Shown here: in pieces, positions 5,946 through 60,560 of the stretch | How positions within the stretch are numbered: position 1 is the stretch's first letter | How the letters are laid out: every line of letters starts with the position of its first letter | From: Mycobacteriales bacterium | GTDB lineage: Bacteria > Actinomycetota > Actinomycetes > Mycobacteriales > SCTD01 | Assembly: GCA_038230355.1 (NCBI GenBank) | Contig: JBBRNK010000022.1 | Location: 474-64,473 of the forward strand | Length of the DNA: 64,000 nucleotides | Reading direction: 5' to 3' | The notes under the pieces: generated by a model | Database searches by the model: none | The model's input: the letters and a program-made list of their open reading frames with translations, nothing else | Told to the model about the DNA's origin: nothing | Made by a program: the position numbers and the translations under genes

Positions 5946-6962
5946 ATGACGAGACAACAAGGCGCGAGCGCCACGCAGGCGGCAGCACTGACCATGCGCG
6001 CTGTGGTGAGGGATCGGTACGGCGCACCAGCCCAGGTCCTGCGCGTCCTCCAGATGTCGGTGCCCACGATCGGCGCAGACGAGGTGCTGGTCCGGGTGCG
6101 CGCGGCCGGCGTCGACCGCGGCGTATGGCACATCGTGACCGGGCTGCCGTATCCGCTGCGGCTAGCCGGCTTCGGCCTTCGCGCGCCGAAGAACCCCGTC
6201 GTCGGCGGGGACCTCGCCGGTGTCGTCACGGCGGTCGGCAGCAGCGCAACCCGCTTCCACGTCGGGGACGAGGTGTACGGCACTGCCGCCGGCACCTTCG
6301 CCGAGTACGCCCGAGCGTCCCAGGAGAAGCTCTCGCTCAAGCCGGCGGGGCTCACCTTCGAGCAGGCCGCCGCCGTCCCCGTCTCGGCGGTGACCGCCCT
6401 GCAGGCAGTCCGCGACCACGGCCGGGTGAGGCCTGGGCAGCAGGTCCTGGTCGTCGGTGCCAGCGGCGGCGTCGGCTCGTACGCCGTGCAGATCGCCAAG
6501 GTGTACGGCGCCACGGTCACCGGCGTAGCCAGTCCCACCAAGCTCGACCTCGTCCGCTCACTCGGCGCCTCCACGGTCCTGGACTACACGGCGGACGAGC
6601 TTCCGGACCGCCGCTACGACGTCATCCTCGACGTCGGCGGCACCACCCCCGTGTCTCGACTTCGCAAGGCGCTCACCCGCACCGGCACGCTCGTCATCGT
6701 CGGCGGCGAGACCAGGGGGCGGGTGCTTGGAGGTGTCCAGCGGCAGCTCGGCGCAGCGCTGCTGTCGCCGTTCCTGCGCCAGCGGCTCTGCACGTTCTTG
6801 TGCAAGGAGAACGCTGGCGACCTTTCCGTCCTCGCCGATCTCATCGACTCCGGCCGGGTGACGCCGGTCGTCCATCGGGTTCTGCCGCTGGAGTCGGCAG
6901 CTCAGGCCGTCGAACTGCTGCTCGCCGGATCCGTGCGCGGAAAACTCGTTCTCTCTGTGTAG
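5946..6962 (+). CDS. NAD(P)-dependent alcohol dehydrogenase-like MDR (zinc-independent)
   Basis: GDLAGVVTAVG, VVGASGGVGSYAVQIAK and GKLVL motifs; divergent from tetR. Confidence 0.9.
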   Translation: MTRQQGASATQAAALTMRAVVRDRYGAPAQVLRVLQMSVPTIGADEVLVRVRAAGVDRGVWHIVTGLPYPLRLAGFGLRAPKNPVVGGDLAGVVTAVGSSATRFHVGDEVYGTAAGTFAEYARASQEKLSLKPAGLTFEQAAAVPVSAVTALQAVRDHGRVRPGQQVLVVGASGGVGSYAVQIAKVYGATVTGVASPTKLDLVRSLGASTVLDYTADELPDRRYDVILDVGGTTPVSRLRKALTRTGTLVIVGGETRGRVLGGVQRQLGAALLSPFLRQRLCTFLCKENAGDLSVLADLIDSGRVTPVVHRVLPLESAAQAVELLLAGSVRGKLVLSV

Positions 6963-7045
6963 AGGGCCCACTCATCGGGCGCGCCAGGGGCCGCGCATGC
7001 TGAGGAGGAGCAGACTGCCGAGAGTGCTCGCTGGCGCGCGCGTCA

Positions 7046-7321
7046 TCACCAGATGATGGTCAGTCCGCGCAGGTGGCCGAACGCTGCGTCGCGGGTCACC
7101 AGCGCGGCTTGGTGGAGTAGTGACTGGGCTGCAAGCATCCGGTCGAAAGGATCGGCATGGTCCCAGTCCAGGCTCCCCGCGCGGATCGCGTCGGCGGCGG
7201 AGATGTCGAGCGACTGCGCGCCGAGTCTGCTCGTCAGGTCGGCGTGCTGGGCCAGCAGGATTTCGGCTTCCGGCCATCCCGGCTCGCCGGTCCGTCTTGC
7301 GGCCGCGCTCGGGTGGGTCAC
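7046..7321 (-). pseudogene. 5'-truncated VapC/PIN-domain toxin
   Basis: DHADPFDRMLAAQS...LVTRD is a PIN C-terminal half; the N-terminal LLDT motif and an antitoxin gene are absent. Confidence 0.75.
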
Positions 7322-8052
7322 GACAAGAAACCCCTGAGCAGCGCGGACGTTCCGGAGAGGTGCTCCTCCATTGCAGCCCGGGCTGCTCCGGGATCGCCCT
7401 GCAGTACGGTGCCGACGATCTCTTCGTGTTGACGATTGCTGTGGACGATGTTCGGTGCCAGGAGTGGGATCGCGTCGAGCAGCGCGCTGACCTTCATCCG
7501 GATGTCGGCAACCGCGGCGGCCAGCGAGGCCGAGCCCGTCCGCTCGCTGATCGCCAGGTGCAGCCGCGAGTCAGCGGTGCGGTACCTCCGCGGGCCGGCC
7601 GCGGTGCAGTCCGCAAGTGCGGCGGTCAGAACCCTGTCGGCCTCGGCTTTCGTCCTCGTGGTCGCGGCGAGCTCGACGGCCCCGAGCTCGAGGACCCGGC
7701 GCAGCGCGAGGGTGTCCTCCAGAGATTCCGGCGTGAGCGGTGCACCGGGACGGACAGTCCGTGCGGTCGGTGGACGGTCGCGGACGAACGTTCCGCCGTG
7801 CCGACCCCGACGTACCTCGACCCAGCCTGTCTCGGTGAGGGAGCGCAGTGCGTCCCGCAGGGTGACGCGGCTGACCCCCAAGCGCACGGCGAGATCCCGC
7901 TCTGCGGGCAAGCGGTCACCGGGCAAAACCAATCCGAGCTTGACCGCCGACAGGACCCGCTCGACGCATTCCTCGTACACGTTGCCGCTGCGGATAGCCC
8001 GGAACGCGACCGCAGCAGGATCGACGGGCGCGGGCGATCCAGGAGCGGCCAT
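7318..8052 (-). CDS. FadR/GntR-family transcriptional regulator
   Basis: GDRLPAERDLAVRLGVSRVTLRDAL winged HTH plus FCD domain. Confidence 0.93.
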   Translation of the reverse strand: MAAPGSPAPVDPAAVAFRAIRSGNVYEECVERVLSAVKLGLVLPGDRLPAERDLAVRLGVSRVTLRDALRSLTETGWVEVRRGRHGGTFVRDRPPTARTVRPGAPLTPESLEDTLALRRVLELGAVELAATTRTKAEADRVLTAALADCTAAGPRRYRTADSRLHLAISERTGSASLAAAVADIRMKVSALLDAIPLLAPNIVHSNRQHEEIVGTVLQGDPGAARAAMEEHLSGTSALLRGFLS

Positions 8053-8054
8053 GG

Positions 8055-8849
8055 TCAGAGCGGCGTGACGTAGGCCCCGCAGATACCCCCGTCGACGAGG
8101 AACTCCGAAGCAGTCATGAATGAGGAGTCGTCCGAGGCCAGGAAAGCGACCGCCGCGGCGATTTCGTCAGCCTCGGCGAAGCGCCCCATCGGGATGTGCA
8201 CCAGGCGCCGGGCAGCGCGCTCAGGGTCCTTGGCGAACAGCTCCTGCAGCAGCGGAGTGTTGACCGGCCCAGGACAGAGCGCGTTGACGCGGATGTTCTC
8301 CCGGGCGAATTGCACCCCGAGCTCACGCGACATCGCCAGCACGCCCCCCTTGGACGCGGTGTAGGAGATCTGGGACGTGGCCGCGCCGAGTCGCGCCACG
8401 AAGGAGGCCGTGTTGATGATCGAGCCCCGACCCCGGGCCTGCATGTACGGAATCGCGGACTTGCAGCACAAGAACACCGAGGTGAGGTTCACGTCCTGGA
8501 CGCGGCGCCACGCGTTGAGCCCCGTCGTGAGGATCGAGTCGTCGTCGGGAGGTGAGATACCGGCGTTGTTGAACGCGATGTCCAAACCCCCGTACTTCGA
8601 TACGGCCGCGCCGAACAGCGCCGCGACCTGCTCCTCCGAGGTCACGTCCACCTGAACGAACAACCCCCCGACGGCCTCAGCGGCCGCGTTTCCCTTGTCA
8701 GGGTCGACGTCGCCTATGACAACATGCGCTCCCTCCGAGGCGAGACGTCGGGCGGTCGCGAAACCGATACCGCCCGCCCCACCGGTCACCACCGCGACGC
8801 GGTCGACGAGCCGACCGACCCCCTGGTTGTCCTGTGCGTTCACGATCAC
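8055..8849 (-). CDS. short-chain dehydrogenase/reductase (Rv2857c-like)
   Basis: TGGAGGIG, NNAG and YTASK motifs. Confidence 0.93.
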   Translation of the reverse strand: MIVNAQDNQGVGRLVDRVAVVTGGAGGIGFATARRLASEGAHVVIGDVDPDKGNAAAEAVGGLFVQVDVTSEEQVAALFGAAVSKYGGLDIAFNNAGISPPDDDSILTTGLNAWRRVQDVNLTSVFLCCKSAIPYMQARGRGSIINTASFVARLGAATSQISYTASKGGVLAMSRELGVQFARENIRVNALCPGPVNTPLLQELFAKDPERAARRLVHIPMGRFAEADEIAAAVAFLASDDSSFMTASEFLVDGGICGAYVTPL

Positions 8850-14181: not shown

Positions 14182-16371
14182 CTAGCTCGGGCTCATGTCG
14201 ACGAACCGCGAGTAGTGGCCCTGGAAGGCGACCGTGATGACGGCGGTCGGGCCGTTACGGTGCTTGGCGACGATGAAGTCGGCCTCCCCGGCGCGGGGGC
14301 TCTCCTTCTCGTAGGCGTCCTCGCGATGGAGCAGGATCACCATGTCAGCGTCCTGCTCGATGGATCCGGATTCGCGAAGGTCGGCGAGCATAGGTTTTTT
14401 GTCGGTGCGCTGCTCGGCGCCACGGTTGAGCTGGCTCATCGCGATCACCGGGATCTCGAGCTCCTTGGCGAGCAGCTTCAGGGCGCGGGAGATTTCCGAG
14501 ACCTCCTGCTGGCGCGACTCGGCCTTCTTGTTGCCGCTCATCAGCTGGAGGTAGTCGATGACGATCAGCTTGAGGTTGTGGCGTTGCTTCAGGCGCCGGG
14601 CCTTGGCCCGGATCTCCATCATCGTCAGGTTGGGCGAGTCGTCGAGGTATAGCGGCGCCTCGGCGACCTCGCCCATCCGGCGGGCGAGGCGGGCCCAGTC
14701 GTCGTCGGTCATCGAACCCGAGCGCATGTGGTGCAGCGGCACCCGCGCCTCGGCTGACAGCAGACGCATCGTGATCTCGGTCTTGCTCATCTCGAGCGAG
14801 AAGATGCACGACGGGTGGCCGTGCTTGATCGAGGCGCTGCGGGCGATGTCGAGGCCAAGCGTGGAGTTGTGGGTCGGCACCATCGCCTCACCGGCGAGGT
14901 AGAGGTGGTCGGCGTTGTCGACCTCCACGCAGCGGACCGGCACGGATGGCACGCGGGTAACGCTGACGATCGTGCGGCGACCGGTAAGCAGGACCTGCGC
15001 AGCCAGCGCCTCCTTATGGCTCATGGCATGGTCGTCGCGGCGGAAGACGCGCTCGTCGGTGACGATCGCGACCCGGTCTTCGCGGACTGCGGTGACGTGT
15101 CCCAGGCCGAGGGCGAGCTCGCGGGCCCACATCGGAAGGGCGACCGAGCCATCGACGTCGATCTTGCCGAGCACGTCGGTGATCCCTGCGAGCGCGTCGC
15201 GGCGCTGCGCCAGCGAGCCGCGGGCCAGCCGCGCCAACAGGGCGACCCGGTCGACGTCGGGCACGACCTCGGCTGCGGTGAGCATCTGCACCTGCGGGTC
15301 GGTTGAACCGCCGGCCAGCCACACTCCCAGCGTGTACGGCGCTGTCGGCAGGGCCACCTCCGGCAGGTCGAGGGCCTGCGTGGTCGGCACAGTGTGGCCA
15401 GCCCGGACGGTGGTGGCCAGCTCGGCCGTCGTACGGATGGAACGGCCGCCGGCGAGGGCGTCGGTGAGCCACTGGTGCTCGGCGTCGGCGACCAGGACGG
15501 TGCCGTCGCTGAAGGTCACGGCGAAGCACGGCCGGTCGAGCAAGACCTCGGTGGCCGCCACAACCCGGGTCGGCAGGCCGTCGCCACCGAACAGCCGGTC
15601 GCCGACGGCGACGGTGCCCATCGTGGTCCAGCCTGTCGGGGTGGGGAGCGGGGTGTCGAGCGCGAGGGCCTTTCCCAGGCCGGGACGGCCGGCGATGACG
15701 ATCAGCTGGCCGGGGTGCAGGCCGTTGGTGAGGGTGTCGAGGTCGACGAACCCGGTAGGGACGCCGGACATCATCCCGGCCCGACCGCCGATCGCCTCGA
15801 GCTCGTCCATCGTGGGCTGCATCAGCTCTTCGAGCAGCGTGTAGTCCTCCGACGTACGCCGCTCGGTGACGTCGTAGATCGTCTGCTGGGCCCGGTCGAC
15901 GATGTCGTCGACCTCCTGACCCTCCGCGGAGTACCCGAGCTGGACGATTCGGGTGCCGGCGTCGACCAGGCGCCGCAGGATCGCGAGCTCGGCGACGATC
16001 TTGGCGTAGTAGCCCGCGTTGGCGGCGGTCGGCACGGTCGACACCAGCGTGTGGAGGTACGGCATCCCACCGATCCGCCCGGCGTCGCCATTCTTGGTCA
16101 GCTCCGCGCCGACGGTGATCGCATCGGCCGGCTCGCCCTTGCCGTAGAGCTCGATGATGACATCGAAGATGATCTGGTGGGCGGGCCGGTAGAAATCGCC
16201 GGACCGGACGGTCTCGATCACGTCGGCGATCGCGTCCTTGTTGAGCAGCATGCCGCCCAGCACGGACTGCTCGGCGGCGTTGTCCTGCGGCGGCGTCCGC
16301 TCGAACTGGGGTGGCTCCTGTCGCGGGGTCTGTGGCGCTGGCCTGCTCAGCTCGACGACCCGCTCGCTCAC
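14182..16371 (-). CDS. dnaB: replicative DNA helicase with an intein in the P-loop (about 461 aa after splicing)
   Basis: PTAANAGYY, GRPGLGK/ST Walker A split by the intein, SLEM, IDYLQL and DLRESGSIEQDAD motifs. Confidence 0.97.
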   Translation of the reverse strand: MSERVVELSRPAPQTPRQEPPQFERTPPQDNAAEQSVLGGMLLNKDAIADVIETVRSGDFYRPAHQIIFDVIIELYGKGEPADAITVGAELTKNGDAGRIGGMPYLHTLVSTVPTAANAGYYAKIVAELAILRRLVDAGTRIVQLGYSAEGQEVDDIVDRAQQTIYDVTERRTSEDYTLLEELMQPTMDELEAIGGRAGMMSGVPTGFVDLDTLTNGLHPGQLIVIAGRPGLGKALALDTPLPTPTGWTTMGTVAVGDRLFGGDGLPTRVVAATEVLLDRPCFAVTFSDGTVLVADAEHQWLTDALAGGRSIRTTAELATTVRAGHTVPTTQALDLPEVALPTAPYTLGVWLAGGSTDPQVQMLTAAEVVPDVDRVALLARLARGSLAQRRDALAGITDVLGKIDVDGSVALPMWARELALGLGHVTAVREDRVAIVTDERVFRRDDHAMSHKEALAAQVLLTGRRTIVSVTRVPSVPVRCVEVDNADHLYLAGEAMVPTHNSTLGLDIARSASIKHGHPSCIFSLEMSKTEITMRLLSAEARVPLHHMRSGSMTDDDWARLARRMGEVAEAPLYLDDSPNLTMMEIRAKARRLKQRHNLKLIVIDYLQLMSGNKKAESRQQEVSEISRALKLLAKELEIPVIAMSQLNRGAEQRTDKKPMLADLRESGSIEQDADMVILLHREDAYEKESPRAGEADFIVAKHRNGPTAVITVAFQGHYSRFVDMSPS
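14866..15669 (-). mobile_element. class 3 intein (268 aa) with a degenerate LAGLIDADG endonuclease
   Basis: begins ALALDTPLPTPTGW (Ala1), block B DAEHQW, block F VRCVEV, ends PTHN/S, giving the W-C-T class 3 signature. Confidence 0.93.
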
Positions 16372-16501
16372 CGCGTCTGCTCCCCGCCCGGTTCTGACCT
16401 CCTGGGTGCCTGTTGGCCGCCCCAGATCCCTTGTGCCGCAACCTTTCTAGCGGCCGGACGACCTGACCGGGGCACGTCCCGGGAGTGTCGCCGCGCGCAC
16501 C

Positions 16502-16643
16502 TGTGGACCGACCTGGGGACAGGGTGGGGACGCACCGGCGAGCCGCTGTGGATGACCAGTGGGTTGCTGGGGAGGGCGGCCAGAGATCGGTCCGCTATCT
16601 GGCCGATCCTCTGCTCACACCGTTGTCCACCACCTGTGGACAA
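16502..16643. promoter_or_regulatory. DnaA-box cluster upstream of dnaB
   Basis: TGTGGACCG 16502, TGGGGACAG 16514, TGGGGACGC 16525, TGTGGATGA 16547, CTGCTCACA 16611, TTGTCCACC 16623 and perfect TGTGGACAA 16635. Confidence 0.7.
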
Positions 16644-16666: not shown

Positions 16667-17242
16667 TCACCCCGCCTCCGGGAGCCTGCTGCCTGAGTCA
16701 CGGCTACCCGCGGCGACACGGGGGCCGTCCGGCACGCTGTCTGCCAGGACTGCGACGCACGCGCCGCAGAGCCGAACCTCGCGGGTGACGAAGTAGTCGC
16801 TCTCGGCCTCGCAGAGGGCGCACGACGGTCGGACCCGGCGCGTCGGCGCCTTCGGCGTCCGCTTGACGGTGCCGAGGTCGGCGCGGATCTGCTCGATCCA
16901 CCGCTGCCGACTCTGCTCACTGGCAGGCTCCTCACAGGCCGCGCTGCTCCGGGCGTGGTCACGAAGCGCCTTCTCCTCACGCCAGCGGGCGTCGGGGGGC
17001 ACCTGCGGCACGAAGCCGCGCAGGAGCGCCTCGACGGCGACGACCGGGTCCCGACCGGCGGGAAGTGCCCCGATCCGGGCGCTGAGCTGCCCGGAACGCC
17101 AGCCCTTGTCCAGCAGCTGCAGGACGAGGTCACCGACCTCAGGGGAGTGCAGGTCGGCGGCCAGACCGGCCGGGAGGTCGCCGAAGACGGCGGCGTGGGT
17201 CGCGGCATCGAGCCGCTGCAGGGGGAGGTCGAAGAGCTCCAT
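16667..17242 (-). CDS. hypothetical protein with C-terminal CxxC...CxxC putative zinc finger
   Basis: 191-aa ORF with host-like codon use; CALC and CGAC; ATG 6 nt after a -10-like hexamer. Confidence 0.75.
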   Translation of the reverse strand: MELFDLPLQRLDAATHAAVFGDLPAGLAADLHSPEVGDLVLQLLDKGWRSGQLSARIGALPAGRDPVVAVEALLRGFVPQVPPDARWREEKALRDHARSSAACEEPASEQSRQRWIEQIRADLGTVKRTPKAPTRRVRPSCALCEAESDYFVTREVRLCGACVAVLADSVPDGPRVAAGSRDSGSRLPEAG

Positions 17243-17248
17243 AGGACA

Positions 17249-17270
17249 AGGTCACCACGGACCACCGACA
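17249..17270 (-). promoter_or_regulatory. PafBC/RecA-NDp-like DNA-damage promoter motif
   Basis: TGTCGG-TGGTCCGTGG-TGACCT versus consensus TGTCGG-N10-TANNNT (one mismatch in the -10). Confidence 0.55.
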
Positions 17271-17280
17271 GTTTCCTGGG

Positions 17281-17308
17281 CTGTCCACACCCTTCGCGGT
17301 TGTCCACA
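17281..17308. promoter_or_regulatory. two DnaA boxes
   Basis: CTGTCCACA 17281-17289 and perfect TTGTCCACA 17300-17308. Confidence 0.7.
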
Positions 17309-17358: not shown

Positions 17359-18300
17359 ATGCGTGCGATCCAGGTCACCAGTCTCGACGGGCCTATGGCG
17401 GTCGAGCTCACCGACGTCCCCGAGCCGGACGCGAGTGGCAAGGTGCTCATCGCCGTCCACGCCGCGGGGGTCAACTTCCCCGACGTGCTGATGACCCGCG
17501 GTGCCTACCAGATGAAGCCGGAGCTGCCGTTCGTGCCCGGCTCGGAGGTCGCCGGCACTGTCATCAGCGGCCCAGGCTTCGCCCCCGGCGCGCGAGTAGC
17601 CGGCTTCACGGTCCTGGGCGGGTACGCCGAGAGGGCCGTTGCCGACCCGGCCCTGCTGTTCACGCTCCCCGACCGGGTGTCGTTCTGGGACGGCGCGGCG
17701 CTGCCCATGAACTACCTCACCGTCGACTTCGCCCTCGCCCGAAGAGCGCACCTCCAGCCAGGTGAGACCGTGCTGGTCCAGGGTGCAGCCGGCGGGATCG
17801 GGGTCGCGACGATCCAGCTTGCCAAGGTCATGGGCGCCCACGTGATCGCAGTGGTGTCTACCGACGAGAAGGCCGAGACGGCTCGGACAGCCGGCGCGGA
17901 CGAGGTGCTGAGGGCGGACAGCTTCCTGGCCGAGGCCAAGGGCCGCGTGGACGTCGTCATGGACCCGGTGGGCGGTGACCGCTTCACCGACAGCCTGCGC
18001 TGCTTGAGGCCCGAGGGTCGGCTGCTGGTTGTCGGCTTCACTGCCGGCACGATCCCCGAGGTGAAGGTCAACCGGCTGCTGCTCAACAACGTCAGCGTCG
18101 TCGGTGTCGGTTGGGGGGCGTTCTGGATGCGCGACCCGGCGTACCTGCAGGAGCAGTGGGCGCGGCTGCTGCCCTACCTCGAGGACGGCCGGCTTCAGCC
18201 CATGCTGGGCAACACCTATCCCCTTGATATGGCGGATCTCGCCCTCCTTGAGCTCGAGGAGCGCCGGGCCCTCGCCAAGGTCCTTCTGATCCTCCCGTAG
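17359..18300 (+). CDS. NADPH:quinone oxidoreductase family protein (MDR)
   Basis: AAGVNFPD, GAAGGIG and DPVGGD motifs; TACGTT -10 six nt before the ATG. Confidence 0.92.
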   Translation: MRAIQVTSLDGPMAVELTDVPEPDASGKVLIAVHAAGVNFPDVLMTRGAYQMKPELPFVPGSEVAGTVISGPGFAPGARVAGFTVLGGYAERAVADPALLFTLPDRVSFWDGAALPMNYLTVDFALARRAHLQPGETVLVQGAAGGIGVATIQLAKVMGAHVIAVVSTDEKAETARTAGADEVLRADSFLAEAKGRVDVVMDPVGGDRFTDSLRCLRPEGRLLVVGFTAGTIPEVKVNRLLLNNVSVVGVGWGAFWMRDPAYLQEQWARLLPYLEDGRLQPMLGNTYPLDMADLALLELEERRALAKVLLILP

Positions 18301-18377: not shown

Positions 18378-18824
18378 CTAGCCCGCGACGACCGCCACGG
18401 ACAGGTTGACCTCGATGTCGCCGTGCACCTTGACGGTGACGGCGTGCGCACCCACGTTCTTGATCGCGTGCTTGATCACGATCGAGCGCTTGTCGAGCTT
18501 CGGACCGCCCGCCTTGGTGATCGCCGCGGCGATGTCCGCCGTGGTCACCGAGCCGAACAGCTTGCCGTTGTCACCGGCGTGCGCGGGCAGCGAGAGCGCG
18601 AGGCCCTGCAAGGCCTGCTTGATCTCGTTCGCATGCGAGACGTCGCGGACGACCCGGGCAGCGCGGACCCGACGGATGTTCGCCACCTGCTTCTCGGCAC
18701 CGCGGGTGGCAGTGATCGCCAGACCCTGCGGGACGAGGTAGTTGCGGCCGTAGCCGTCCTTGACCTCGACCGAGTCGCCGGGCGCTCCGAGGTTGGGCAC
18801 GTCGTGCGTGAGGATCAGCTTCAT
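18378..18824 (-). CDS. rplI: 50S ribosomal protein L9
   Basis: [13 protein letters not shown]...[10 protein letters not shown] and GKLFGSVT motifs. Confidence 0.97.
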
Positions 18825-18825
18825 C

Positions 18826-19062
18826 TCAGCGCGCCGTGGAGGTGTAGGGCAGCAGGGCCATCTCGCGGCTGTTCTTGACGGCGACGGCAACGTCGCGCTG
18901 GTGCTGGCTGCAGTTGCCGCTGACCCGACGGGCGCGGATCTTCCCGCGGTCGGAGATGTACTTGCGCAGCAGACCGGTGTCCTTGTAGTCGACGTAGGTC
19001 ACCTTGTCCTTGCAGAACTGGCAGACCTTCTTCTTCGGCTTCCTCGGAGGAGGCTTCGCCAT
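18826..19062 (-). CDS. rpsR: 30S ribosomal protein S18 (zinc-binding C+ form)
   Basis: [15 protein letters not shown] and GNCSQH motifs. Confidence 0.98.
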
Positions 19063-19089: not shown

Positions 19090-19599
19090 TTAGAAGGGAG
19101 GTTCGTCGGACCAGCCGCCGCCACCGCCGGAGGACGCCGGAGCCGAGGAGGCCCAGGGGTCGCCCGCGGGAGCGCCGCCGCCGGAGGGGGCACCGCCGTT
19201 GGAGCCGCCGAAACCGCCCCCTCCGCTGCCACTGCGCTGGGTCCGGTTGACCTTCGCAGTGGCCCACTTCAGGGAGGGGCCGACCTCGTCCACGTCAAGC
19301 TCGTACACCGTGCGCTTCTCGCCCTCTTTGGTGTCGAACGAGCGCTGCTTCAGGCGGCCCTGCACGATCACGGCCATCCCCTTCTGCAGGGACTCCGCCA
19401 CGTTTTCGGCGGCCTGTCGCCAGATGGAGCAGCGCAGGAACAGCGCCTCCCCGTCCTTCCACTCGTTCGTGTTCTTGTCGAAGCTGCGAGGCGTCGAGGC
19501 GACGGTGAAGTTCGCCACGGCAGCGCCGCTGGGGGTGAAGCGCAGCTCGGGGTCGCCGGTGAGGTTGCCGACCACGGTGATGACGGTGTCGCCTGCCAC
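19090..19599 (-). CDS. ssb: single-stranded DNA-binding protein
   Basis: [15 protein letters not shown], Gly-rich linker and DEPPF tail. Confidence 0.98.
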
Positions 19600-19738
19600 G
19601 TGTAGCTCCAATGTCAGTGCCCGCTGGTGCGGGACGGTCCCTCCCCGGTCAGGGGAACGGTAGGTGTCGGTGCGTGCGGTCGTTGAGCGCACTTCTTAGC
19701 GGTGGGGAAGGACACAATGCGGACTGCGCGAGGGACGC

Positions 19739-51987: not shown

Positions 51988-52222
51988 TGTGGACAACTGC
52001 TTGCTCGTCCTCCATGGGTGCTGTTAGCGTCCCGTCGCCGGTTCTTCCCCACCAGCACCTGGCCCCCGCCAGCTGACCTACCCGTCGGTGTGGCCGGTCG
52101 CCCGCCCGACCTGATCCACCCCGCTTTGCCGTGCCCATCTCGCGCCCGTCCGGACGCCTCCGACCCTGGTCGACGCGCCTCGTGTCACACGCTCCACAAG
52201 GTGTGGACAACTTTGTGGACAA
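51988..52222. promoter_or_regulatory. DnaA boxes in the dnaA promoter region
   Basis: perfect TGTGGACAA at 51988, 52202 and 52214. Confidence 0.85.
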
Positions 52223-52271
52223 AGGACTACTTCCTGCTCGACCCCGCTCCACCGACCGATCGAAGGACTGC

Positions 52272-53843
52272 GTGACCGACTTCCAGCCCACCGTCCTGAC
52301 AGCCACCGGCCCCGACGGGACGGGCGGGGAGGCGGGACCGGCCGGCGCGCCCCCCAGCCTGGAGCTCGATGCGGTCTGGCACCGGGTCGTGGCCGGGTTG
52401 TCTGACGGGGCGCTGTCGCCTCAGCACCGGGCGTTTGTGAACCTGACCCGCCCGCTTGGTCTGGTCGAGGACACGGTCCTGCTCGCCGTCCCCTACGACC
52501 TGGTCAAGGACGTCATGGAGAACCGGCTCCGGCCGGTGCTGACCAGCGCCCTGTCCGCGGCGTACGGCCGGGAGATGCGGATCGCGGTCAGCGTGCACCC
52601 GGTCGAGCCGGCGGAGGCGTCCTACCGGGAGGAGCCCGGCTACCAGGAGGTCCGGTACGAGCCCAAGCCGTACCAGAGGGACGCCTTCGACAGTGCGCAC
52701 GACGTACGGGCGCTGCCTGGTACCGGTCGGGACCGCTCGCCGGGGCCGGACAACCTGGTGGACCTGCACGACTTCAACGCCCGCACCCACCGCAACCGCG
52801 ACGTGGAGCCGGCCCGGCTCAACCCGCGGTACACCTTCGAGACGTTCGTCATCGGCTCGTCCAACCGCTTCGCCCATGCCGCGGCGGTCGCCGTCGCCGA
52901 GGCGCCCGCCAAGGCGTACAACCCGCTGTTCGTCTACGGCGAGAGCGGGCTGGGAAAGACCCACCTGCTGCACGCCATCGGGCATTATGCCCAGCACCTG
53001 TTCACCGGCGCGCGGGTGCGGTACGTGAGCTCGGAGGAGTTCACAAACGACTTCATCAACAGCCTGCGCGACGACAAGCAGCACGCCTTCCAGCGGCGCT
53101 ATCGGGACGTCGACGTCCTACTCGTCGACGACATCCAGTTCCTTGAGAACAAGGAGCGGACGCAGGAGGAGTTCTTCCACACGTTCAACACGCTCCACAA
53201 CGCCAACAAGCAAATCGTGATCACCTCCGACCGGCCGCCGCAGCAGCTGTCGACGCTGGAGGACCGGCTTCGCACCCGCTTCCAGTGGGGCCTGATCACC
53301 GACGTGCAGCCACCCGACATCGAGACCCGGATCGCGATCTTGCGCAAGAAGGCTGCCAGCGATCGGCTCACCGCCCCGCCGGACGTGCTGGAGTTCATTG
53401 CGAGCAAGATCGCGACCAACATTCGGGAGCTCGAGGGCGCCTTGATCCGGGTGACGGCGTTCGCCTCGCTCAACCGGCAGCCGGTCGACCTCTCGCTGGC
53501 CGAGATCGTGCTGAAGGACCTGATCCCGGCCGAGGGCGGTCCGGAGATCACTGGCGCGACCATCATGGCCGCGACCGCGGAGTACTTCGGGCTGACGATG
53601 GAGGACCTGTGCGGGTCCTCCCGCAGCCGCGTTCTGGTCACCGGCCGGCAGATCGCGATGTACCTGTGCCGAGAGCTCACCGAACTGTCGCTGCCCAAGA
53701 TCGGGCAGATGTTCGGCGGTCGCGACCACACCACCGTGATCCACGCCGACCGCAAGATCCGCGGTCAGATGGCGGAGCGGCGCGCGACGTACAACCAGGT
53801 GGCGGAGCTCACGCAACGGATCAAGACCCGGTCCCGCCAGTGA
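52272..53843 (+). CDS. dnaA: chromosomal replication initiator
   Basis: [13 protein letters not shown] and GGRDHTTV motifs; GTG after GAAGGA. Confidence 0.98.
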
Positions 53844-54296: not shown

Positions 54297-55433
54297 ATGG
54301 AGCTAAGAGTCGAGCGCGACGCCCTCGCGGACGCCGTCGTCTGGACCGCCCGGTCCCTGCCTACCCGGCCACCGATGCAGGTGCTGCTCGGGCTGCTGCT
54401 CGAGACCAGCGACAACCAGCTGACGGTGAGCGGTTTCGACTACGAGGTGTCCTCGCAGATCACCGTCGACGCCGCCACCGCCGACGACGGCCGCATCCTG
54501 GTGCCCGGCAGGCTGCTGTCCGACATCGTCCGGTCGCTCCCGACCCAACCTGTCGACCTGCGACTGGAGGGCACCCGCGTCGTGCTGACGTGTGGCGCGG
54601 CGCGCTTCACGCTCCCAACGCTCCCGGTCGAGGACTACCCCGCGCTGCCGGCGATGCCGACCACAGCTGGGTCACTCGAGAGCGATGTCTTCGGTGCCGC
54701 GGTGGCCCAGGTCGCCCTCGCCGCCGGCCGCGACGACACGCTGCCCGTGCTGACCGGTGTGCGGATCGAGATCGAGGGCGAGCAGATCACGATGGCCGCG
54801 ACCGACCGCTACCGGCTCGCTGTCCGCACGCTGCCGTGGAAGCCCGAGCACTCGGGACTGTCAGCAACCGCCCTGGTTCCGGCCCGCACCCTCGCCGACA
54901 CAGCCAAGGCCCTCACCAACGGCCCCGAGGTGCTGCTGGCACTGTCTACCGGCGGCGCCGGCGAGGGCATGATCGGTTTCGAGGGTGGTGGCCGCCGGAC
55001 CACCTCGCGGCTGCTCGAGGGCGAGTTCCCCAAGTACCGCTCCCTGCTGCCGAGCGAGAGCTCCGCCGTCGCCGAGGTCTCGACGGCGCCTCTGGTCGAG
55101 GCCGTCAAGCGCGTTGCCCTCGTCGCGTCGCGCAACGCTCCGGTCAGGCTGAGCTTCTCCGCCGACGGCGTGGTCCTCGAGGCAGGCGGTCAGGATGACG
55201 CGCAGGCCTCCGAGCGCATCGAGTGCGGCTGGGAGGGCGAGGCCATGTCGATCGCCTTCAACCCGCAGTACTTGCTCGACGGCCTCGGCGCGGTCGACAG
55301 CGACGTCACGACCATGTCGTTCACGGGTCCGACCCGACCAGCTGTCCTGACCGGTAAGCGGCACAGCCCCGACGAGCCGACCCACACCGCGGACTACCGC
55401 TACCTGCTCATGCCGGTCCGCCTGTCCGGATGA
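54297..55433 (+). CDS. dnaN: DNA polymerase III beta clamp
   Basis: ATDRYRL, IAFNP and LLMPVR motifs. Confidence 0.98.
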   Translation: MELRVERDALADAVVWTARSLPTRPPMQVLLGLLLETSDNQLTVSGFDYEVSSQITVDAATADDGRILVPGRLLSDIVRSLPTQPVDLRLEGTRVVLTCGAARFTLPTLPVEDYPALPAMPTTAGSLESDVFGAAVAQVALAAGRDDTLPVLTGVRIEIEGEQITMAATDRYRLAVRTLPWKPEHSGLSATALVPARTLADTAKALTNGPEVLLALSTGGAGEGMIGFEGGGRRTTSRLLEGEFPKYRSLLPSESSAVAEVSTAPLVEAVKRVALVASRNAPVRLSFSADGVVLEAGGQDDAQASERIECGWEGEAMSIAFNPQYLLDGLGAVDSDVTTMSFTGPTRPAVLTGKRHSPDEPTHTADYRYLLMPVRLSG

Positions 55434-56501: not shown

Positions 56502-57669
56502 ATGTACGTCTCCGCTCTGTCGTTGACCGACTTCCGGTCCTGGACGCAGCTCGACCTCGAGCTGGCGCCTGGCCCGACCGCGCTCGTCGGAAGCAACGGG
56601 CAGGGCAAGACCAACATCGCCGAGGCTCTGATGTACGTCGCGACCCTGAGTTCCCACCGCGTCAGCGCGGACGCCCCGATGGTCCGCCAGGGAGCGGAGC
56701 GGGCGATCGTCCGGGCCCGGGTGGAGCGCGACAGCCGGACGACGCTGGTCGAGATCGAGCTGAACCCGGGACGCGCCAACCGGGCCCGCGTCAACCGTGG
56801 CGCGGTCCCGCGAGCCCGAGAAGTGCTGGGGTTGTTGAGGACTGTGCTGTTCGCACCCGAGGACCTCAATCTGGTCCGCGGTGACCCGAGCGCCCGGCGC
56901 AGTTTCCTCGACGACCTGCTGGTGCTGAGGACGCCCCGCCTCGCAGGGGTGCGGGCCGACTACGAGCGGATCCTGAAACAGCGCAACGCACTGCTCAAGA
57001 CGGCTTTCCTGGCTCGCCGTAACGCAGGAGGTACGGCCGCGTCCAACGCCGCGAGGACCTTGGACATCTGGGACGCCCACCTTGCCTCGACCGGTGCGGA
57101 GCTGCTGTCGGCGCGGCTCGGCCTCGTCGATGACCTGCTGCCGCTCGCGGACGTGGCCTATCGGGAGGTCTCGAAGGGCCAGGGCGAGCTGTCCCTTGCC
57201 TACAAGAGCTCGCTCGGAGAAGGGATGCCCGTCTCGACGCCCCTGTCCCGCGTTGCGGGGGGAGACCGGGAGGTGCTGTCCGCAGCGTTGCTGTCGGAGC
57301 TGGCCCGGGTCCGGCAGAACGAGGTCGACCGAGGGGTGTCGCTCGTCGGCCCGCACCGTGACGAGCTGGTGCTCACGCTCGGGTCGCTGCCGGTGAGGGG
57401 CTACGCCTCGCACGGGGAGTCCTGGAGCGTGGCGCTCGCCCTGCGGCTCGCGTCCTACGAGCTGCTCAAGGCCGACGGTGCGGGGGGTGACGGTGAGCCG
57501 GTGCTAGTCCTCGACGACGTCTTCGCCGAGCTCGACACCGGCCGTCGGGAGCGGCTCGCGTCGCTCGTGCAGGGAGCAGGACAGGTCCTGGTCACGGCGG
57601 CCGTGCCCGGTGACGTCCCCGAGCAGTTGCTCGGCGGCCGGTACGACGTGCACGACGGGACCGTCACCC

Positions 57670-57680
<11 letters not shown>
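56502..57680 (+). CDS. recF: DNA replication/repair protein RecF
   Basis: [14 protein letters not shown] and LDDVFAELD motifs. Confidence 0.97.

Positions 57681-60560
<2,880 letters not shown>

Follow-up and report, generated by a model that had tools for sequence, protein, structure and literature searches.

YabA and Hda are small regulators that bind both DnaA and the sliding clamp; the C-terminal part of YabA binds zinc and an N-terminal peptide of Hda binds the clamp. PafBC is a WYL-domain activator that acts by sigma adaptation, and it is, to our knowledge, not settled which factors connect the replisome of Actinobacteria with this damage response. According to the accessible part of the report on mycobacterial promoters, the PafBC motif reads tGTCgg(N10)tA(N3)T, PafB contacts positions -23 to -28 and GTC is the most conserved part (PMC8635444). 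The dnaB gene of M. tuberculosis is induced by mitomycin C in a partly PafBC-dependent manner, as stated in the available excerpt of a second study (PMC8151990), and a third, likewise available in excerpt, places "Rv0057 (upstream of dnaB)" among the five strongest DnaA sites of M. tuberculosis and M. smegmatis (PMC7738170). The accessible portions of the literature on Rv0057 describe no molecular function for it. Here we analyzed a 64-kb stretch of DNA from a Mycobacteriales bacterium (64,000 nucleotides (nt) of contig JBBRNK010000022.1; hereafter the window), in which an open reading frame (ORF) of 191 amino acids (aa), encoding protein P0001, lies directly upstream of dnaB. The data are best explained by a lineage-specific, leaderless gene, probably induced by DNA damage through a PafBC-type promoter, that sits in the DnaA-controlled leader of dnaB and encodes a zinc-ribbon adaptor. 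P0001 is an uncharacterised protein from one family of uncultured actinobacteria, and a role in replication is possible.

A conserved gene of one bacterial family

Along the minus strand, ssb (19090-19692) is followed by rplI (18378-18890), the 191-aa ORF and dnaB, with a spacer of 295 nt between the ORF and dnaB. This agrees with the preliminary description of the stretch, which had placed the ORF directly upstream of dnaB with DnaA boxes on both sides.

16667-17242, minus strand: coding sequence of P0001, stop codon included (GC3, dN/dS, 162 homologues)

The GC content at third codon positions (GC3) of the ORF is 0.88, similar to that of the neighbour genes, and the ratio of nonsynonymous to synonymous substitution rates (dN/dS) against relatives lies between 0.16 and 0.42 in 8/8 pairs, indicating a genuine gene on which purifying selection acts. 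The protein has no family match in Pfam (E <=0.01), NCBIfam or PHROGs, so that the early view of it as a genuine but uncharacterised gene stands. A word-indexed search recovered the 162 relatives; the named ones are all annotated "hypothetical protein", and wherever an organism is given, the source is one of the metagenome-assembled genomes (MAGs) assigned to Frankiales or Mycobacteriales. Only 41 clusters reached E <=0.001 when the profile was searched against 1.84 billion cluster representatives, and the ESM Atlas returned only unnamed actinobacterial clusters.

The gene is present in 34 of the 46 genomes of the window's own GTDB family, distributed by genus as follows.

g1 16/17, g176 1/1, g177 6/11, g178 6/6, g179 0/2, g180 1/1
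g181 0/1, g182 1/2, g183 1/1, g184 0/1, g185 0/1, g186 2/2

Among 354 genomes from 18 other families of the same order there were matches in two, both marginal and partial. The family profile had no match in 33 genomes of genus g2 and a single marginal, partial one in 46 genomes of family f2. The sole full-length match in a class-wide sample of 401 genomes was the window's own genome, the five further matches being partial (E 1e-6 to 2e-4). The gene family is thus lineage-specific and confined to one GTDB family.

A PafBC-type promoter is predicted directly before the start codon

The minus strand upstream of the ORF reads TGTCGG (17270-17265), 10 nt, TGACCT (17254-17249), 6 nt and ATG (17242), exactly as had been described.

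17265-17270, minus strand: TGTCGG, PafBC-type -26 element at -28 to -23 from the A of the ATG, with the conserved GTC
17249-17257, minus strand: extended -10 TG at -15/-14, one base, then the hexamer TGACCT at -12 to -7, without A at -11

We aligned the promoters of 32 loci: the window, 18 from named MAGs and 13 from more distant genera. The GTC precedes the ATG in all 32, with the element 28 nt away in 25 loci and 29 nt away in seven, and exact TGTCGG is found in 23. The T at -7, which ends the hexamer, is likewise present in 32/32, and both this T and the position of the GTC hold in the nine loci that are unlinked from dnaB. The extended -10 TG at -15/-14 is found in 28 loci; the four without it all carry A at hexamer position 2 (-11), a base that occurs in only 8/32. 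This distribution suggests that the extended -10 TG stands in for the A at -11 in a variant promoter of the PafBC class. Six to seven nt separate the hexamer from the ATG in every locus, a geometry that fits a leaderless mRNA; no AGGAG-like Shine-Dalgarno sequence is visible by eye before the ATG, and uvrB of the same genome has the same leaderless-type layout.

Searching the whole genome (3.5 Mb), we found only 10 sites that match TGTC[AG]G-N10-TANNNT. Six of them precede uvrB, uvrA, lexA, a PD-(D/E)XK nuclease gene, a DEDDh/GIY-YIG exonuclease gene and an 83-aa Cys-rich ORF, while the other four lie before a fused ABC transporter gene, before a ribosomal protein gene and, in two cases, with no ORF within reach. 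The element stands exactly 28 nt before the first start codon in only four ORFs: uvrB, rmuC, a second PD-(D/E)XK nuclease gene and the 191-aa ORF. The genome also carries pafA (equivalog match, E 8e-224), followed by two adjacent WYL-domain genes that are presumed to be pafB and pafC; neither was matched by an NCBIfam model. No LexA box was found within two mismatches of CGAAC-N4-GTTCG between 16300 and 17400, and a scan for the sigma-70 consensus revealed no promoter with a -35 hexamer. The early proposal of a PafBC-like promoter is therefore borne out by the fixed distance of the GTC, the regulon and the pafA/WYL genes, but not by the -10 region, where TGACCT is not TANNNT. Since it departs from the canonical -10, we call the promoter PafBC-type and not a canonical member of the class; by way of this variant promoter, the 191-aa ORF very probably belongs to the PafBC damage regulon.

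Two other candidate genes of the regulon deserve mention. The 83-aa ORF (G000 contig C24:15584-15835, minus strand; locus L068) carries CDAC...CGDC behind a strict TGTCGGTG-N8-TAGGTT site. Matched by neither Pfam nor NCBIfam, its product is another small, uncharacterised Cys-rich protein that may belong to the damage regulon. The fused ABC transporter (1162 aa, a membrane domain and two ATPase domains; G000 contig C5:107040-110528, locus L069) starts 10 nt after TGTCGG-N10-TACCGT and is an unexpected candidate member.

DnaA boxes and linkage to dnaB

The actinobacterial DnaA-box consensus is TTGTCCACA. At one mismatch or less, the window holds 16 matches to it, compared with a mean of 6.19 in shuffled sequences, and none of 100 shuffles reached 16. 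Four of the 16 (16623, 16635, 17281 and 17300) flank the 191-aa ORF, and the four densest clusters of the window are the upstream region of dnaA, the dnaA-dnaN spacer and the two flanks of the ORF. By sequence match, then, the predicted boxes are enriched in the window, and they are conserved in relatives.

17281-17308, plus strand: two DnaA boxes upstream of the promoter, CTGTCCACA at 17281-17289 and TTGTCCACA at 17300-17308
16502-16643: DnaA-box array before dnaB, with a perfect box at 16635 (minus strand), a box with one mismatch at 16623 (plus strand) and boxes with two mismatches each at 16547, 16514 and 16502
16443-16450, minus strand: CTAGAAAG block, a candidate -10 region of dnaB's own promoter, with CTAGA conserved in a 17-sequence alignment

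Alignment of the 295-nt spacer over 17 loci showed a string of DnaA-box-like blocks followed by the conserved CTAGAAAG block. The 71 nt over the stop codon of the ORF fold no more stably than shuffled sequences (z +1.65; 196/200 shuffles fold at least as well), which makes read-through into dnaB plausible.

Linkage of the gene to dnaB was common but not universal. In 16 of 18 named loci dnaB directly follows the gene; the sequences of the remaining two stop before dnaB could appear. An order-wide search covering 29 loci found dnaB within 1.5 kb in 19, one locus that is cut short and nine without dnaB, five of them in genus g178 and four in g177. Of seven genera examined, five thus have the gene immediately before dnaB; the preliminary description had named its absence from dnaB, as in these nine loci, as an outcome telling against its proposal. 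Members of the window's own genus have a gene for a PIG3-type quinone oxidoreductase (17359-18300, plus strand) between rplI and the ORF, and in four other genera the order is rplI, gene, dnaB without it. The oxidoreductase start lies 116 nt from the ATG of the ORF, a distance that puts both promoters and the DnaA boxes into one short spacer.

Between -120 and -30, a DnaA box occurs in 22 of the 23 loci with the dnaB-linked arrangement but in only two of nine unlinked loci, both with two mismatches. The boxes stay with dnaB and not with the moved gene, indicating that they belong to the control region of dnaB. Of the control by DnaA that was first proposed, the enrichment and conservation of the boxes are borne out. 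The promoter element, by comparison, moves with the gene into contexts other than dnaB. In two g177 genomes (6-kb flanks) the homologue is directly upstream of a gene for a HelD/HelR-like RNA-polymerase recycling ATPase (L062:5979-8712; L064 ~5960-8796), with a gap of ~33 nt in L062, where alone the junction was read; these homologues carry the same TGTCGG-type promoter and no LF peptide (see below). In one g178 genome the homologue lies between marR and an M23 peptidase gene.

These exceptions raise the alternative that P0001 is a damage-response protein without a role in replication, its site before dnaB being a historical accident and its partner RNA polymerase or a repair enzyme. The HelD/HelR-like neighbour in one genus, the marR and M23 peptidase neighbours in another, and a promoter that travels with the gene while the boxes do not are what such a protein might leave behind. 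Its order of two charged helices, an acidic EEPAS turn and then a C4 zinc finger also recalls the layout of DksA/TraR, but among 22 members searched at lax thresholds none matched zf-dskA_traR, and the spacing between the Cys pairs is 14, as against 17 in DksA/TraR. The helD homologue that the window's own genome carries on contig C29 has neither such a neighbour nor such a promoter motif, and 5/7 genera examined keep the gene at dnaB. We regard this alternative as unlikely.

The dnaB upstream regions of three genomes from other families were also compared; none has an ORF related to the 191-aa gene before dnaB. The first (L059, genome G124), where the rplI-dnaB gap is ~460 nt and holds no comparable ORF, carries in the 500 nt before dnaB a set of DnaA boxes, a canonical TGTCGG-N10-TACAGT at -67 and, after it, TCGAATGCACGTTCGA, a LexA/SOS-box-like palindrome, an arrangement that would mean triple control of dnaB by DnaA, PafBC and LexA. 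The second (L060) has the near match TGTCGG-N10-TAGACA before dnaB, and the third has DnaA boxes only.

Predicted structure and remote similarity of P0001

The motifs first noted in the protein, LLDKGW, PASEQSRQRWIEQIRADL and CALC-x14-CGAC, are all present, and the four cysteines C141, C144, C159 and C162 are invariant in 30/30 and 22/22 aligned relatives.

17222-17242, minus strand: LF peptide, codons 1-7 (MELFDLP), conserved, in a low-confidence and likely disordered tail
17003-17212, minus strand: predicted five-helix N-terminal domain, residues ~11-80, with the motif LLDxGWRxGQLxxR (AlphaFold2 model and invariant columns)
16757-16822, minus strand: predicted C4 zinc ribbon CxxC-x14-CxxC, residues 141-162 (invariant Cys, weak Pfam rows, models)

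An AlphaFold2 model built from 30 sequences has a mean predicted local distance difference test score (pLDDT) of 81. Residues 1-10 form a low-confidence tail (mean pLDDT 62), which is followed by the N-terminal domain (block pLDDT 93-96; helices 13-20, 25-30, 34-45, 50-58 and 66-77), by helices 85-103 and 109-125, linked by the conserved EEPAS turn, and by a basic proline-rich linker, the zinc ribbon (141-170) and a disordered end. Short strands lie between the two CxxC knuckles both in the whole-protein model and in a model of the C-terminal half, and together with the invariant cysteines they indicate that residues 141-162 form a predicted C4 zinc ribbon. Pfam at lax thresholds gave weak zinc-ribbon rows in nine of 22 members and otherwise single weak rows; a scan of 10 distant relatives gave the same kinds of rows only. 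The C-terminal half folded alone (residues 82-176; pLDDT 86) reached a best Z of 4.0, with generic zinc-finger rows only, and zf-C4_ClpX matched neither P0001 nor the 22 members. Two further candidates from a comparison of the family profile with PDB sequences, a MYND coiled-coil segment (E 5e-4) and uS14 type Z (E 0.06), were rejected as composition or generic-knuckle matches.

The preliminary description had seen in the helical part the DnaD-like half of a phage or plasmid replication initiator. Such an origin would make P0001 a domesticated DnaD/DnaB_2-like module that loads or reloads DnaB after damage, in keeping with its damage-type regulation and with its place directly upstream of dnaB in five genera. 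A VIA-align search of the whole model against 48,161 chains gave its best score, Z 6.0, for the N-domain, and two DnaD-like chains were among the best rows against residues 13-87: 2zc2_B (Z 5.2, root-mean-square deviation (rmsd) 3.7, 66 aligned) and 2i5u_A (Z 5.0, rmsd 2.9, 67 aligned). These rows, however, are tied with AAA+ lid domains, SYNCRIP and other unrelated bundles at Z 4.7-6.0, below the range in which the tool is meaningful for helical bundles. Foldseek with the whole model found nothing at E <=0.001 in PDB or BFVD; Pfam DnaB_2 (PF07261) matched none of 22 members at E up to 10; and tblastn of P0001 against 50,697 phage and 72,556 plasmid records gave no match. The gene is unlinked from dnaB in two genera, and a DciA gene is present in the window (57610-58197; Pfam DciA, E 1.3e-23), where it had been placed at 57670. 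Being confined to one bacterial family, P0001 cannot be a general actinobacterial loader. An initiator-derived loader is accordingly highly improbable, and nothing was found that ties the protein to helicase loading, the function first suggested for it. A complex prediction with DnaB, run on the natural pair of locus L004 (DnaB without insert) and with no control runs, scored 0.06 and 0.01 compared with a mark of 0.32, and we count it as evidence neither way.

We also considered a DNA-binding transcription regulator of its own promoter or that of dnaB, which would work by means of the zinc ribbon and a segment of the N-domain resembling a helix-turn-helix. There is a weak match (E 1.1e-4) between profile positions 33-61 and the repeat protein P0161, whose repeats score as HTH_7, GerE, HTH_23 and GcrA, and one family member each touches GcrA (E 0.03) and HTH_23 (E 0.19). 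No match to any DNA-binding fold was significant, though, and counting residues in the sequence gives the N-domain a net acidic character and a third helix that is hydrophobic and acidic, unlike a recognition helix. A conserved CGTGG block beside the -26 element could be the operator, but the extended -10 explains that block equally well. A regulator of this kind is very unlikely. As a separate observation, the metagenome protein P0160 (820 aa) has ~6 repeats of the form L..L....L.YGW...Q...YIGQ that match family-profile positions 30-68 (E 4.7e-6), so small modules of the GW..Q helix-pair kind may occur more widely.

The N-terminal LF peptide

Residues L3 and F4 are invariant in 30/30 sequences. 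The peptide reads MELFDLP, MDELFDLP or MDLFGQ in the window's genus and QTPLFE, QDPLFD, ERPLFD, EPALFS, AAPLFE or GLFPDPP in other lineages; it is found in all five dnaB-linked genera and is missing in both unlinked ones, although the lineages are few and related. The consensus for beta-clamp binding is QL[SD]LF or QxxLF, and we take three of the variants to fit QxxLF (QTPLFE twice, QDPLFD once). The peptide might hence be a beta-clamp motif through which a damage-induced protein docks on DnaN and slows or redirects replication, like YabA or Hda. A conserved, disordered N-terminal peptide that follows dnaB linkage would suit a sliding-clamp regulator, and dnaN, named from gene order, lies in the same window (54297-55433). 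The motif is short, and the window protein has no Q position because M1 is its first residue; with so few and related lineages to compare, this possibility appears distinctly unlikely. A fuller version would make P0001 a new damage checkpoint factor: induced by PafBC, it would bind the beta clamp by the LF peptide and engage DnaA or the helicase by the zinc ribbon and the acidic domain, the gene having arisen in the dnaB leader by capture of dnaB's damage promoter. If true, it would wire damage signalling directly to the replisome, but as a whole we consider it decidedly unlikely.

Neighbouring genes

The helicase gene itself encodes a protein with a large insert.

14182-16371, minus strand: dnaB, 729 aa (Pfam DnaB and DnaB_C)

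The insert comprises 268 codons at the P-loop (residues 235-502; 14866-15669, minus strand; GRPGLGK followed by the insert, which ends in HN, and then ST). Its first residue is Ala and it ends in His-Asn with Ser after it; it resembles an intein of the class without an N-terminal Cys, and Pfam gave no intein match in it. Relatives vary in this respect: some lack the insert altogether, with DnaB proteins of 457-466 aa, and in others a further insert is found around residue 670.

The longest dnaA ORF starts at 52131, and its match to the DnaA family begins only at residue 83 (window 52131-52377), suggesting a later start for dnaA. Two perfect DnaA boxes at 52202 and 52214 (52202-52222) would then lie in the dnaA promoter.

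Discussion

The regulatory part of our explanation is well supported by sequence comparison, the conservation of the promoter being our firmest finding. Most likely, a leaderless mRNA is made from a PafBC-type DNA-damage promoter. In genomes of sister families the same kind of promoter stands directly before dnaB, and in the window's family before the new ORF, so that the new gene would have taken over dnaB's damage promoter. This promoter probably also feeds dnaB, as no convincing terminator follows the ORF, and the DnaA boxes on both sides would form part of the dnaB control region. The product would be a small cytoplasmic protein with, in order, a short disordered LF peptide, an acidic five-helix domain, two charged helices with the EEPAS turn between them, a linker of basic character and the C4 zinc ribbon. 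Its role is probably that of an adaptor, induced by damage, which works on the replication or repair machinery by contacting proteins. The comparisons establish the gene, the taxa in which it occurs, the conserved promoter, the enriched boxes and the synteny along with its exceptions; PafBC dependence, the leaderless start, read-through into dnaB and any function of the protein are what we infer.

Several observations weigh against this explanation. The A at -11 of the published PafBC motif is missing in 24/32 loci, including the window. The gene is away from dnaB in genera g177 and g178, which means that its role need not be bound to dnaB, and the DnaA boxes have not moved along with it. A pattern scan flags two weak terminator-like hairpins and a T run just past the stop codon. 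Family, structure and profile searches gave no fold or sequence link of P0001 to any replication or repair protein, and we infer the start site, damage induction and co-transcription with dnaB.

Our literature search found nothing on the region upstream of dnaB in Actinobacteria or on a PafBC regulon with a zinc ribbon. The locus unites a PafBC-type promoter, a DnaA-box cluster and the gene of the replicative helicase, with a strongly conserved zinc protein between them. Whatever the function of that protein, the promoter appears to be a naturally occurring PafBC-class variant with an extended -10 TG in place of the A at -11, and a new gene appears to take over a promoter that elsewhere drives dnaB directly. 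The significance is limited by the confinement of the family to one uncultured lineage.

Comparison with known systems

With the DnaD/DnaB_2 domains of Firmicute primosome proteins P0001 has in common a small helical domain of ~70 residues and the weak structural rows (Z 5.0-5.2); unlike them, it has an added zinc ribbon, and there is no sequence match. Ribosomal uS14 type Z and the zinc-binding domain of ClpX share with the C-terminal half the layout CxxC ... LCxxC knuckles followed by a helix (ClpX domain 2ds8_B: rmsd 2.1 over 33 residues, E 2; uS14 type Z: E 0.06), neither match being significant. YabA and Hda are alike in small size, in layout and in their tie to DnaA-controlled loci; with no match in sequence or fold, the resemblance is one of layout only.

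As in the DnaA-bound Rv0057 region, in the part of that report accessible to us (PMC7738170), a box cluster stands before dnaB and downstream of rplI, and here it ranks with oriC and the dnaA promoter as densest. Unlike the Rv0057 region, the locus holds an ORF without detectable relative in other families of the order (0/33 g2 genomes). A further likeness is to the PafBC-dependent, RecA-independent promoters of mycobacteria: the activator genes are present, as pafA and two WYL genes, and, going by the accessible text (PMC8635444), both kinds of promoter have the GTC element at -28 to -23, a 10-nt gap and T at -7. The window's promoter differs from them in its hexamer, TGACCT, and the promoters of the gene family in the loss of A at -11 (24/32) and the conservation of the extended -10 TG.

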